Shown here piece after piece: positions 67 through 19,003 of a stretch of 35,609 bases of DNA. Origin of the DNA: a virus. The notes under the pieces are model-generated. The model worked only from the letters and a program-made list of their open reading frames with translations. It was not told where the DNA came from and did no database searches. The translations under genes were made by a program, and so were the position numbers. The first letter of the stretch is position 1. Each line of letters starts with the position of its first letter. The DNA lies in the UHGV virus genome UHGV-0211441, one strand, 5' to 3'.

Positions 67-672
67 ATGGATGGGCGCATGAACGGAAAATACACCCTGA
101 TTTATGCGGATCCGCCGTGGACATACCGCGATAAAGCCAATGATGGGAAACGCGGCGCCGGGCATAAATACCAGACCATGACACTACTGGATATCTGCCG
201 TTTGCCAGTGTGGGAACTGGCCGCCGATAACTGCCTGCTGGCTATGTGGTGGGTACCGACGATGCCGCTCGAGGCATTGAAGGTGATCGAGGCGTGGGGC
301 TTTCGTCTCATGACCATGAAGGGATTCACCTGGAATAAGTGCGGAAGCCGGCAGACCGACAAGCTCGTTATGGGAATGGGGCATATGACGCGAGCAAACA
401 GCGAAGATTGCTTGTTTGCTGTGAAGGGGAATCTTCCTGCCCGGCTGGATGCCGGGATCATCCAGTCTTTCACTGCGCCGCGGCTCGAACATTCCAGAAA
501 ACCCGACTGTGTGCGCGAAATGCTGGTGCAGCTGCTTGGCGACGTTCCCCGCATTGAGTTATTCGCGCGGCAGTCGTCGCACGGTTTTGATGTTTGGGGA
601 AATCAGTGTGAATCACCTGCGGTGGAATTACTGCCTGGATTTGCGGAATATATTGTGAATGCGCGCGTATAA
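67..672 (+). CDS. DNA N6-adenine methyltransferase, MT-A70 (Dam-like) family
   Basis: Motif LIYADPPW (DPPW/DPPY catalytic motif IV of N6-adenine MTases) lies close to the N-terminus, typical of MT-A70 phage methylases. The ORF is open from position 1 (GTG); the Met at 67 (MDGRMNGKY...) is chosen as the plausible start, so the 5' end is uncertain. Confidence 0.75.
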   Translation: MDGRMNGKYTLIYADPPWTYRDKANDGKRGAGHKYQTMTLLDICRLPVWELAADNCLLAMWWVPTMPLEALKVIEAWGFRLMTMKGFTWNKCGSRQTDKLVMGMGHMTRANSEDCLFAVKGNLPARLDAGIIQSFTAPRLEHSRKPDCVREMLVQLLGDVPRIELFARQSSHGFDVWGNQCESPAVELLPGFAEYIVNARV

Positions 673-701
673 TTTATTTACGAACAAAAAATAGATAAGC
701 A

Positions 702-727
702 GGGGGATTCACGTATCCCCCAATTTT
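702..727. terminator. GC-rich hairpin (GGGGGAT-N6-ATCCCCC) followed by AATTTT, between the convergent Dam and Toprim-like genes; probable bidirectional terminator
   Basis: Perfect 7-bp GC-rich stem seen directly. It sits in the 60-bp gap between the stop codons of two convergent genes. Confidence 0.4.
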
Positions 728-733
728 GATAGT

Positions 734-1258
734 TCAGATCATAACAGATTTTTCTTCTTTGCCTCTAAGCATATCAACTATTAATTGTATTTTTTTACAA
801 TTAGGGGAGTCTAAAACATCTGCAGTAAATAAAGTGGCATAGCTATCCCTGTCTGTGCATGGCCCATTAAGTAATGGGTGAAGCAGAGCTTTGCAACTTT
901 GATTTGTTGTACCTTTCTTCTTACCAAGCACATCTAAAAGTAACCCCTCTAAGCAAGGTTCTGAACCAACAAGATTTATTCCTGCGCTTAAAGCTTTCTT
1001 GATATTTGCTTTGGGCCAAATGATATCAGTATCCAATAGCACAATAACAAAATCATAGCCATCGCAACGCTTACAAGATATGGCATGAGACATAACATGT
1101 TCGGGGCCTTTCCCACCAGCTGTGACTATGGATACTTTAAATGAACCATTGGAAAATAATGATTTTAAGTGAGAGAGGAATGCTTTTTCAGCATGACCCT
1201 CTCCAACAAGTAATAGGGTTTTAGTGACGCTTCGGCGTACCACTTTCCTTTTTGCCAT
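734..1258 (-). CDS. Small Toprim-like protein (DUF4276/RloB-like), partner of the upstream AAA_21 ATPase
   Basis: 174 aa. N-terminal LLVGEGHAE resembles the Toprim acidic motif, and a downstream DxD motif is present (VIVLLDTDIIW). The gene lies 10 bp downstream of the ATPase gene on the same strand and has the same low GC. The family assignment is from motif recognition only. Confidence 0.55.
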   Translation of the reverse strand: MAKRKVVRRSVTKTLLLVGEGHAEKAFLSHLKSLFSNGSFKVSIVTAGGKGPEHVMSHAISCKRCDGYDFVIVLLDTDIIWPKANIKKALSAGINLVGSEPCLEGLLLDVLGKKKGTTNQSCKALLHPLLNGPCTDRDSYATLFTADVLDSPNCKKIQLIVDMLRGKEEKSVMI

Positions 1259-1268
1259 TGTTTAATCC

Positions 1269-2492
1269 TTAAATTTCAATGTTTGGTACGCCGCCTAATG
1301 CGCCAGTAATGTATTTAGAGTAAAGATTGTCTTGACTTCTCAAGCCTTGGATTTCATCAAGTCTCCAAGCTTCACTAACGCTATCATTTTTTTCAACCAA
1401 GTAAATGTTATGTTTATTTACGTATTTAAGTATTTCTGCAGTGTGGCAGCTAAATATTAGTTGTGAAGAATGCTGGTTGATACCCTCATTTGCGAACATA
1501 TCAAGTAATTCGCGAATCATATAAGGATGGAGGTCGCTATCTAGTTCGTCAATAACAGCAACTCCACCAAAATGTAATGCAGATATTAATTTATAAATAA
1601 AATAGAAGCATGCTTGAGTTCCAGTGGACTCCATGATGAAAGGGATTTTAAATGTTTCACCATTATGCTCATGTACGCCATAGGGCATAAACTTCTGCTC
1701 TAACTCTCCTGTCTTTTTATCCATGATTTCATCTTCTTTTATTATTATATCTTTTAGGCCAAAATCCATTCTTGTTAAGTATTTTTTTGCCTTTTCAAAT
1801 AACTCAGGCTCATGGTGGTAATATTCTGCTGCACTCAAGACTTTACCATAATTAAAGTTTGATTTTCCAAATACATTTAAATTATTCTCAATGCTATAGA
1901 AAATGTAATGCATTGCACCGGCTGTTATATTATCATCTTTCCTTCTGAAGTATGATATAGCTGATGCATTTTTAGGCACAGTTCTTAGTTCTGATACAGG
2001 GAAGTCATTTGTGTTACTTTTTACTTTATATTCATTTGTGGTTGCATCATATTTTCTATAAAAAATAGATGAGAATAAACGGCTTGATTTGTATTTTAGC
2101 TCTTCATGTAATACCGTTTTTTTGTCGAGTTTCAAAAAATATTTAAATTCGACATGATTCATTTCGCCATCAATGAGCCTGCTATCAACAAAGCAAATCT
2201 CAATTTCCGAAGGTTCATCCATATTGCAAATGTGTGGATACATAGGCAGTGATTCGGAATTATCCATTGATTTAAATGATTCACTGCAAAACCAGCTTAA
2301 AAAAGCCAGTGGTTTAAGCATATTTGATTTGCCAGAACCATTAGCACCCATTACGGCTAATACTTTAGTTATCCTCGTATCCACCCATTGTTTGTCCAGT
2401 GACGACTCTGAAGAGTTTGCCTTAAGAGTGAGATCTACGAGCTGCTCGTCTTTGAACGAGTGGAAGTTTTTGAAGCGATACCATTTTATCAT
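1269..2492 (-). CDS. AAA_21/ABC-type ATPase (OLD/AbiL/PARIS AriA-like abortive-infection ATPase)
   Basis: 407 aa. Walker A GANGSGKSN; Walker B/D-loop VAVIDELDSDLHP. N-terminus MIKWYRFKNFHSF and C-terminus ...YITGALGGVP match the usual ends of AAA_21 defence ATPases. Low-GC gene. Confidence 0.8.
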   Translation of the reverse strand: MIKWYRFKNFHSFKDEQLVDLTLKANSSESSLDKQWVDTRITKVLAVMGANGSGKSNMLKPLAFLSWFCSESFKSMDNSESLPMYPHICNMDEPSEIEICFVDSRLIDGEMNHVEFKYFLKLDKKTVLHEELKYKSSRLFSSIFYRKYDATTNEYKVKSNTNDFPVSELRTVPKNASAISYFRRKDDNITAGAMHYIFYSIENNLNVFGKSNFNYGKVLSAAEYYHHEPELFEKAKKYLTRMDFGLKDIIIKEDEIMDKKTGELEQKFMPYGVHEHNGETFKIPFIMESTGTQACFYFIYKLISALHFGGVAVIDELDSDLHPYMIRELLDMFANEGINQHSSQLIFSCHTAEILKYVNKHNIYLVEKNDSVSEAWRLDEIQGLRSQDNLYSKYITGALGGVPNIEI

Positions 2493-2603
2493 ATTGGGCC
2501 CGTTTAGACTTTTTTTTGTTTAACTGGCTCTACTATTGCAGGTGAAATGATGTTTGTCCATCCCGATTCGTGCGAAAAACAATCGCTTGTGGAGCGTTTC
2601 TGT

Positions 2604-2632
2604 TTGCGAAGGGGGAGTTATGATAGTATAAA
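2604..2632 (+). promoter_or_regulatory. Candidate sigma70 promoter (TTGCGA-N17-TATAAA) upstream of the 63-aa ORF
   Basis: Hexamers and spacing read directly from the sequence, with an AT-rich context upstream of a GGGG Shine-Dalgarno (SD) sequence and a GTG start. Not validated. Confidence 0.3.
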
Positions 2633-3542: not shown

Positions 3543-3845
3543 ATGACCAAAGACGATAAACGCTGGCTGGAAGACGTTGCATCACTGGGTTGCGTCGTAT
3601 GCAGAAATCTAGGCTACGGCGCCACACCTGCAGAAGTTCACCACATCCGCAAAGGGCAGGGCATCGCCCAGCGCGCCGACAATAAAAAAACACTCCCGCT
3701 TTGCCCGCCACACCACAGAACCGGCGGACACGGTGTAGCTATCCATGCAGGGCAAAAAACGTGGGAAGAAAACTACGGTACCGAATCTGAATTACTCAAT
3801 CAGGTAATCGCTGAGGTGGGGGAATTACGTTTATGCAGAATTTAA
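3543..3845 (+). CDS. HNH-type zinc-finger nuclease, DUF968/Ref-like
   Basis: CVVC...EVHHI...LCPPHH motifs (CxxC/HH zinc-binding HNH signature). An alternative GTG start at 3528 overlaps the upstream stop. Confidence 0.6.
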   Translation: MTKDDKRWLEDVASLGCVVCRNLGYGATPAEVHHIRKGQGIAQRADNKKTLPLCPPHHRTGGHGVAIHAGQKTWEENYGTESELLNQVIAEVGELRLCRI

Positions 3846-4000
3846 TTCCATCTCTAGGAGCAGCAGATAAATCTAGAAAGTGTGGTTGGCCAACGCGACG
3901 GGAAAGCATGAAATTCTGTCTGGCTCCTTTTTCCATTCTGGCGGGTGGCGATTTTGCCCCTCTCTATGCTCGCGCACGCGCGCGTTTAGGGGGGTGATTT

Positions 4001-4297
4001 ATGCCGCTGGTTGCCACCTTCCGAACAGACTGGTTCCGCGTCATTACCGACCTGACCAGGAAAAACCTCACCACTCAGCAAATCGCCGATGAACTTGGCG
4101 TTTCGAAATCTGCCGTTCTCGGTTGGAAATCCGGATCAGAACCTCGCCACGGTCACGGTGAGGCGCTGATCGCTCTCTGGTGTCTGGCTACCAGCTCAGA
4201 CCGTAAAAAACTCCCCACTGTGCTTTATCGGCAGTGGTGGACGTTCCGCCGCCCTGTTTTTGGTCGGGAAACTGACCAGAAGGGCAACACACAATGA
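4001..4297 (+). CDS. Small helix-turn-helix DNA-binding protein (candidate late-gene regulator or terminase-associated HTH protein)
   Basis: 98 aa. Strong RBS GGGGGGTGA. HTH segment LTTQQIADELGVSKSAVLGWKSG. It is the first gene of the late (+ strand) block. Confidence 0.5.
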   Translation: MPLVATFRTDWFRVITDLTRKNLTTQQIADELGVSKSAVLGWKSGSEPRHGHGEALIALWCLATSSDRKKLPTVLYRQWWTFRRPVFGRETDQKGNTQ

Positions 4298-4324
4298 CGA
4301 CTCACTAATTCAGGAGTGAACAAA

Positions 4325-18481: not shown

Positions 18482-19003
18482 CTATTTCGATTTACATGAT
18501 TCTGGAGAAACCCCAAACCCAAATATGAGGGTTTTTCCTGAATCACTGTAGTAATTGAGCATTATTGTCTTATGTTCTTTCCGTGCTTCGTAGAATAGTC
18601 TCTCCTGTGATGACATAGGGTAAATACCATCAGGTGTACAATATAATTTTTTTAGGTCTTCTTTTGTCGAATTTATAGCTGCTTCCGAGGAGGATTTTAT
18701 AAAATCCTTTGTGTAAACGTTATCGCCGTAACTGAATACAGTTTTACTTCCTTCCGCATAATTTTTATTAGATTCGCTTAGGTCTGCATTCTCTTTGTAG
18801 GAACGTAGGTTTAATACTGACACATTTAGTACAATTTTTTTACCGTTATCGATACCGCTAATGACCTTATAGTCAGTGTACGGGTTAGTAATTTGTATTC
18901 CTGGGCCTGATATTGGGACGATATATCCTGAATCCTCAATTAAATCTGTGGAGGCAGAGGCAATCAAGGGAAAAATTAGCAATAATGGGATGAGTTTTTT
19001 CAT
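18482..19003 (-). CDS. Secreted/periplasmic protein of unknown function (moron), signal peptide MKKLIPLLLIFPLIASA|ST, two Cys
   Basis: 173 aa, antisense to the structural operon. Markedly AT-rich and Asn/Lys/Ser-rich. Signal peptide with AxA signal-peptidase I cleavage site, no lipobox. Confidence 0.65.
   Translation of the reverse strand: MKKLIPLLLIFPLIASASTDLIEDSGYIVPISGPGIQITNPYTDYKVISGIDNGKKIVLNVSVLNLRSYKENADLSESNKNYAEGSKTVFSYGDNVYTKDFIKSSSEAAINSTKEDLKKLYCTPDGIYPMSSQERLFYEARKEHKTIMLNYYSDSGKTLIFGFGVSPESCKSK

Follow-up and report, generated by a model that had tools for sequence, protein, structure and literature searches.

An AbiL-type ATPase and RloB gene pair in a prophage accessory slot as a candidate abortive-infection cassette

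Close to one end of UHGV virus genome UHGV-0211441, a stretch of 35,609 nucleotides that we analysed at its full length and call the window, lies a two-gene cassette that encodes an ABC-type ATPase and, directly downstream on the same strand, a small protein of the RloB family. We think it probable that the two form a horizontally acquired, self-contained moron of the AbiL type, pairing an ABC ATPase with an RloB nuclease, and that abortive infection is the likeliest way in which it works. The cassette is a recognisable and already deposited member of the AbiL family, and it represents no new variant or class: the family is known, standard tools detect it and the same cassette is annotated in GenBank. 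Knowledge of AbiL goes back to the late 1990s, and the system is nowadays classed with PARIS, Old and Gabija. A small, confidently modelled, prophage-borne version from Klebsiella-type hosts would offer a convenient Gram-negative model for the trigger, the target and the restraint of AbiL. There is also some relevance to phage therapy, where exclusion systems encoded by prophages influence which of the therapeutic phages work.

The two proteins

Both open reading frames (ORFs) are where the initial annotation had placed them, encoding 407 and 174 amino acids (aa) with a 10-bp gap between them, and the short peptides it had quoted (GANGSGKS, VIDELDSDLHP, MIKWYRFKNF, GALGGVP, LLVGEGHAE and LLDTD) are all present. 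Neither is a chance ORF, since each has hundreds of homologues in Gammaproteobacteria with conserved motifs, and an AAGGA Shine-Dalgarno sequence overlaps the stop codon of the ATPase gene. The placement of the ATPase in AAA_21 is sound, with a Pfam match at 7.6e-27 that clears the gathering cut-off. The PADLOC AbiLi model PDLC02335 spans residues 1-406 at an E value of 9.7e-71 (236 bits), a score that no AriA, PtuA, HEC-01 or ATPase-Toprim model in PADLOC comes near. We counted 378 homologues of the ATPase, and in 35 homologues, at 38-81% identity, we read the invariance of the Walker A, ABC signature-like, Walker B with D-loop and H-loop residues (Table 1). The AlphaFold 2 model (predicted local distance difference test score, pLDDT, 90; predicted template modelling score, pTM, 0.88) has its nearest solved folds, according to Foldseek, in Rad50, Septu/retron PtuA and SMC/cohesin heads (E 1e-11 to 1e-9), and these matches therefore identify the protein as an ABC-type head in which a short helical insertion replaces the Rad50 coiled coil. 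Sequence and profile searches of PDB sequences found no solved relative, the only matches being marginal ones to PtuA or retron ATPases. In one GenBank record the protein is given 371 aa, and we considered a frameshift or truncation here; the DNA is collinear and the start that yields 407 aa is conserved, which leaves only a choice of start codon.

The small protein had been proposed to carry the metal-binding motifs of a Toprim fold, and its membership of the RloB family, its predicted fold and its conserved residues all uphold that proposal. Pfam RloB matches it at 3.5e-07 (31.0 bits) and matches every one of 33 aligned homologues (best 2e-11), while the PADLOC AbiLii models PDLC02338 and PDLC02337 match it at 3e-12 and 3.1e-06. 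From the same 33-sequence alignment, in which the numbering runs one lower than in the protein because Met1 was left out, we took both the conservation and an AlphaFold model (pLDDT 91.2, pTM 0.87), and in this model helices alternate with four strands and lead into a helical tail. The arrangement is that of a Toprim domain: the four strands form a parallel sheet with helices in alternation, a conserved Glu follows beta-1 and a DxD follows beta-3. The longest structural alignments of the model are with nucleases of the OLD family. A further conserved acidic residue, E104 of the PCLEG motif, aligns with a Glu of the lactococcal AbiLii-like ORF56, and G49-K50 and K123 are invariant as well. On the model, the invariant acidic residues (E20/E24, D76-x-D78 and E104) appear to occupy the catalytic positions of Toprim enzymes, and the topology suggests that they would cluster in space. 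No solved relative of this protein emerged from profile and sequence searches of PDB sequences, where the matches were TAL-effector and Rab noise.

Other parts of the first description of the small protein did not survive. A DUF4276-type partner (PF14103) had been suggested; this family gives no match to the window protein at E <= 1 and reaches just one of the 33 homologues, at E 0.057. Pfam OLD-like_TOPRIM is likewise matched by a single homologue (E 0.023). Nor can the pair be called a compact and little-characterised variant on account of its short partner, as about 170 aa is the usual size in the RloB subfamily and the partner in a lactococcal AbiL-type pair has 192 aa. Searching 1.84 billion cluster representatives with a profile, we obtained 1784 matches at E <= 1e-3, of which 228 reached E <= 1e-30 and were almost without exception 160-180 aa long. 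The best 150 family representatives range from 116 to 228 aa, which means that there are no ATPase fusions among them.

A mobile pair in a variable slot

In all contexts that we examined, the ATPase gene comes first and the RloB gene follows immediately, with spacing that runs from a gap of about 11 nt to an overlap of 4 nt. These contexts are the following: Klebsiella prophages, where the pair occupies the same slot as in the window; a lambdoid prophage of Enterobacter hormaechei; the end of a Providencia prophage, beside tail-fibre genes and an integrase; the chromosomes of Dickeya and of Collimonas, in each case among housekeeping genes; an Edaphovirga contig; and a 5.3-kb Photobacterium plasmid. 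The two proteins have diverged in step, with ATPase/RloB identities of 97/91, 81/76, 80/71, 59/51, 52/52, 39/47 and 37/45%, and in every context compared (about eight unrelated ones) the guanine-cytosine (GC) content of the cassette is below that of its flanks. We found no match to the cassette in the complete genomes of E. coli, and none in a DNA-level search of PLSDB plasmids.

The genes of the window are those of a temperate phage or prophage and include an integrase, a CI-like repressor, YdaT, a DnaB helicase, the N-terminal domain of a T7-type tail fibre and a lysozyme. The low GC content that first drew attention to positions 680-2540 is real, and this block is indeed the lowest-GC 2-kb stretch of the window, but the figures needed adjusting, to 35.8% from about 38% for the block and to 52.6% from about 56% for the remaining window. 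Its borders were nearly right, although comparison with sister prophages makes the cassette-specific DNA slightly wider: blastn homology to relatives that lack the cassette stops at about 653 and restarts at about 2621. At the cassette ends there are no meaningful direct or inverted terminal repeats, and we rejected a transposon-like insertion on this ground; an RNA component (a type III antitoxin or similar) was rejected for lack of any Rfam match at E <= 1.

As a comparison set we took 80 sister prophages from IMG/VR, all of which have the neighbouring DUF1367 gene at 85-99% identity. Only four of them carry the cassette, and in sister phages the corresponding slot measures 1.2 to 3.6 kb and may hold HNH endonuclease-like genes, Dcm-type and D12 Dam-type methyltransferases, a DUF6338 protein or a 311-aa HNH_5-like gene. 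It is because the slots differ in both size and cargo that we regard this as a variable accessory slot, and the early suggestion of a horizontally acquired moron is supported by this variety, by the low GC content and by the rarity of the cassette among the sisters. The identity of the neighbours had to be revised in part. The upstream gene, taken at first for a Dam methylase, encodes an MT-A70-family adenine methyltransferase according to Pfam, not one of the Dam/D12 class, and the downstream genes, for which the description as nin-like was no more than loosely right, are a 63-aa ORF, a DUF1367 protein and a RecA-dependent-nuclease/DUF968 protein.

The cassette is already in the databases. 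At the DNA level it is 99.2% identical to GenBank Stenotrophomonas phages vB_SmeS_BUCT708 and vB_SmeS_BUCT709, in which the genes are labelled 'ATP-binding protein' (or 'AAA family ATPase') and 'RloB domain-containing protein'; what our scan adds to these names is the label of an AbiL-type defence candidate. As an aside on these two records (OM816834.1 and OM816835.1, our loci L001 and L100), the first 3.8 kb of the window aligns collinearly with both at 93% identity, rising to 99% within the cassette, and the two records share their gene order with prophages whose RloB protein NCBI places in Klebsiella pneumoniae. Stenotrophomonas DNA is expected to have about 66% GC, and the window, at about 52%, lies much below this, and the host label of Stenotrophomonas maltophilia in the two records may deserve checking.

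What the pair might do

In our opinion the pair most likely serves abortive infection or works as a toxin-antitoxin module, and the ATPase would restrain and then release the nuclease. What the analysis shows directly is which genes these are, their fold and conserved motifs, their strict pairing, their mobility and their place in a prophage accessory slot. Complex formation, toxicity, a trigger, a substrate and anti-phage activity are things that we infer for this pair, and the model of an ATPase that senses and restrains and a nuclease that kills is drawn from published work on lactococcal AbiL, on RloB toxins and on PARIS, Old and GajA. Lactococcal AbiL, in the summary of Deng 1999 that is given in PMC13064643, causes abortive infection and acts after phage transcription, and reviews list its mechanism as undetermined (PMC13064643). 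In E. coli, the AAA partner of the D44 toxin, a homologue of RloB, neutralises that toxin (PMC10440598, Fig. 6B). In PARIS, an AriA hexamer sequesters AriB until a trigger releases it, and AriB then cleaves tRNA-Lys (PMC11464382); P2 Old removes the anticodon arms of tRNAs (PMC12445682; bioRxiv 10.64898/2026.07.10.737580), and GajA nicks DNA (PMC8136825). By analogy, in a lysogen an oligomer of the ATPase would bind the nuclease and hold it inactive in the manner of an antitoxin, and a cue from a superinfecting phage would alter the nucleotide or conformational state of the ATPase. The nuclease, released or activated in this way, might then cut an essential nucleic acid, with tRNA (as for PARIS AriB and P2 Old) and DNA (as for Gabija GajA) as the candidate substrates, and cleavage would abort the infection before progeny form.

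Several observations weigh against this interpretation. The Pfam RloB score of the small protein falls 0.5 bit under the gathering cut-off of 31.5, and the kinship with lactococcal AbiL is distant: the window ATPase has only 24% identity to the ATPase of the lactococcal AbiL-type pair, and the small protein gives no significant BLASTP match to the lactococcal one, the link being one of profile alignment only, with an hhalign probability of 18%. The consensus scan that yielded the putative operon promoter, a site which lies within the cassette-specific DNA and is identical in the Klebsiella relatives, gave as a whole no more sites than shuffled sequence. Our literature search found no published experiment on the cassette or on any proteobacterial AbiL homologue, and the AlphaFold interfaces predicted by NetFlax for AAA:TOPRIM pairs were unconvincing (PMC10440598).

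Three other explanations deserve to be considered, and it is the distribution data that make each of them less likely. The one that fares best, although we regard it as unlikely, is a plain toxin-antitoxin addiction module, which would stabilise the prophage or mobile element through post-segregational killing or maintenance and would exclude no other phages. It gains from the finding that an RloB-type toxin and an AAA antitoxin act as a toxin-antitoxin pair in E. coli (PMC10440598), from the Photobacterium plasmid of about 5 kb, which carries almost nothing besides the pair, and from the occurrence of the pair as an isolated chromosomal island. Yet the cassette sits in prophage accessory slots beside other conflict-related cargo, the founding AbiL gives phage resistance according to the account of it in PMC13064643, and all related systems of ABC ATPase plus Toprim that have been characterised so far are anti-phage (PMC11464382, PMC10568477); in any case, toxin-antitoxin behaviour and defence are mutually compatible.

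It is very improbable that the pair is instead a DNA modification or restriction accessory coupled to the adjacent MT-A70 gene, whose nuclease would cut DNA that lacks the methylation of the phage. What speaks for it is that the convergent neighbour encodes an MT-A70 adenine methyltransferase, that methyltransferases often occupy the slot, and that Campylobacter RloA/RloB are found within type I restriction-modification loci, the RloB family having taken its name from restriction-linked ORFs (PMC10440598, PMC13064643). However, MT-A70 is present in about 40 sister prophages without the cassette, the pairs of Dickeya, Collimonas, Providencia and Photobacterium have no methyltransferase next to them, and in the window the two genes are convergent and have a terminator-like hairpin between them. 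Least credible of all is a part in the DNA metabolism of the phage, as a split SbcCD/RecF/OLD-like ATPase-nuclease for its own replication, recombination or repair. The nearest ATPase folds do include Rad50 and SMC heads, and the cassette has replication genes on one side and genes of recombination type, among them the RecA-dependent nuclease, on the other. Yet the cassette is transcribed against the surrounding early/late operon, has a foreign GC content, is missing from 76 of the 80 otherwise similar prophages, occurs on chromosomes and plasmids outside any phage and has no Mre11/SbcD-type partner.

One may also speculate that the AbiL-like clade of enterobacterial prophages, with an ATPase identity to lactococcal AbiL-type proteins of only about 24%, uses a trigger or a substrate that differs from those of PARIS, Old and Gabija. 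We hold this idea tentatively and find it somewhat doubtful. As an example of such a distinct mode, a minimal RloB nuclease of 174 aa might cut a distinct RNA or DNA target upon sensing a specific phage protein, and this compact, confidently modelled pair, in a host that is easy to work with, could then be the one that reveals how AbiL works.

Other features of the locus

The positions of the genes, motifs and candidate signals are collected in Table 1. The hairpin between the convergent MT-A70 and RloB genes is likely to be their bidirectional terminator, to judge from its sequence. Both it and the promoter-like site fall within the cassette-specific DNA, in keeping with a pair that brings regulatory signals of its own.

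Table 1. Features of the cassette, in window coordinates
Feature	Position	Strand	Remarks
Cassette-specific DNA	654..2620	.	36.2% GC against 52.6% in the rest of the window; missing from most sister prophages
Candidate GC-rich hairpin, GGGGGAT-ACGTGA-ATCCCCC	702..721	.	T-rich on both sides; between the convergent MT-A70 and RloB genes
AbiLii-like RloB-family protein	734..1258	-	174 aa; proposed Toprim-type metal-dependent nuclease effector
PCLEG motif, after beta-4	944..958	-	P101, C102, L103, E104 and G105 invariant
Toprim motif 2, DTD, end of beta-3	1025..1033	-	D76 and D78 invariant
Toprim motif 1, VGEGHAE, directly after beta-1	1187..1207	-	E20 and G21 invariant; E24 in at least 90%
AbiLi-like ABC (AAA_21, Rad50/SMC-type) ATPase	1269..2492	-	407 aa; proposed sensor and restrainer of the nuclease; Pfam, PADLOC, AlphaFold 2, Foldseek
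H-loop	within 1440-1451	-	H350 invariant
Walker B and D-loop, VIDELDSDLHP, residues 313-323	1524..1556	-	D315, E316, D318 and P323 invariant
ABC signature-like ESTGTQ (ESxGT), residues 288-293	1614..1631	-	E288, S289, G291 and T292 invariant
Walker A (P-loop), GANGSGKS, residues 49-56	2325..2348	-	G49, N51, G54 and K55 invariant
Putative sigma-70 operon promoter, TGGACA, 17 nt, TG-extended AATAGT	2532..2560	-	about 40 nt upstream of the ATG; from a consensus scan

Just beyond the cassette, at 2633-2652, lies a LexA/SOS box close to the consensus (CTGT-N8-ACAG), which reads TACTGTATATAAAAACAGTG on the minus strand. It precedes the 63-aa ORF (2675-2866) by 23-42 nt and heads the operon that this ORF forms with the DUF1367 gene and the RecA-dependent nuclease. 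We considered and rejected LexA regulation of the cassette: the box stands between the cassette and the next gene, and it belongs to the phage backbone, since it is outside the cassette-specific DNA and is retained in 77 of 77 sister loci, with and without the cassette alike, although some regulation by read-across is conceivable. Its half-sites are nearly always kept while the spacer varies, and the nin-like operon therefore appears to be under SOS control.

Elsewhere in the sister prophages the slot has yielded other genes that caught our eye. Between MT-A70 and the 63-aa ORF, loci L090 and L095 have a low-GC (32%) gene on the opposite strand (interval about 231-1168, minus), and its 311-aa product, with a weak HNH_5 match (1.1e-05, under the cut-off) and no PADLOC match, could be an alternative moron or defence candidate. 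Loci L073 and L055 carry there a DUF6338 protein (4e-15) of 217 or 178 aa, apparently membrane-associated and encoded at 40% GC. Three of these alternative cargo genes were tested against PADLOC, and none had a match. In the cassette-bearing Klebsiella sisters L008-L011, a few genes downstream at about 3787-4080, a 97-aa gene matches Pfam Acb2_Tad1_hairpin, a family of anti-CBASS/Thoeris sponges; the counterpart of this region in the window (3845-4316) is shorter, and its sole sizeable ORF, at 4001-4297, has only weak helix-turn-helix matches. Further along the window, a second low-GC (about 37%) ORF of 173 aa (18482-19003, minus strand), which has no Pfam match and sits amid plus-strand virion genes, may be another moron.

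Comparison with known systems

Likening the genes to a split OLD-type ATPase-nuclease, as the initial annotation did, was right with respect to AbiLi/AbiLii, given the PADLOC matches of both proteins, and wrong with respect to PARIS. Campylobacter RloA/RloB and the NetFlax pair AAA(D29):TOPRIM_OLD(D44) belong to the same Pfam families as the window pair, but they are embedded in type I restriction-modification loci or described as toxin-antitoxin modules, with neither a prophage context nor a demonstrated defence phenotype. The OLD family (P2 Old, the Ts and Bp OLD proteins, and GajA of Gabija) uses the same two catalytic modules, shares the EGxxE-like and DxD motifs, and provides, in its Toprim regions, the best extended structural matches of our small protein. 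In the OLD family proper (classes 1-3), however, ATPase and Toprim are found in one polypeptide, whereas here a stop codon and a 10-bp spacer divide them between two ORFs, and unlike Gabija the cassette has no UvrD-like GajB partner.

PARIS (AriA/AriB, a class 4 OLD-like system) is also a split pair of ABC ATPase and Toprim nuclease, is often borne by phages or satellites and has the mechanism that is understood best for such an architecture, but its effector is a DUF4435 protein of about 300 aa in place of the 174-aa RloB protein. None of the 33 members of the small-protein family matches Pfam DUF4435 at E <= 1, and no AriB model is among the PADLOC matches. The ATPase scores 8.1e-12 on a specific AriA model and 1.7e-29 on a generic one of 304 positions, against 9.7e-71 for AbiLi, and the better of the two AriA matches covers essentially the same residues as Pfam AAA_21; AriA is absent from the top 50 Foldseek matches of the ATPase model. 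As a partner of about 170 aa is normal for AbiL, the contrast with the larger AriB reflects an identity other than PARIS. Sensing of an Ocr-like anti-restriction trigger, a kind of cue that the initial annotation had proposed here, is a property of PARIS and is not reported for AbiL in the literature that we found.

AbiL, classed with the systems of ABC ATPase plus TOPRIM (PMC11464382), remains the closest of the known systems. Its founding member, from Lactococcus lactis plasmid pND861, differs in being on a plasmid, while ours occupies a prophage accessory slot in a Gram-negative host of the Enterobacterales, and our small protein scores best on the AbiLii sub-model PDLC02338, not on PDLC02337. 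In both, an ABC/AAA_21 ATPase gene is followed by a co-oriented gene for a small RloB/Toprim protein, and both are carried on mobile elements. The window pair agrees with the PADLOC/DefenseFinder definition of AbiL in the AbiLi profile, the AbiLii profile, and the adjacency and co-orientation of the genes. The lactococcal prophage proPhi7 has a pair of 410 and 192 aa, annotated 'abortive phage resistance protein', which hits the same AbiLi model at 4.4e-76 and an AbiLii model at 5e-18, and the TEGxxE, DxD and E motifs of its small protein align with those of the window protein.

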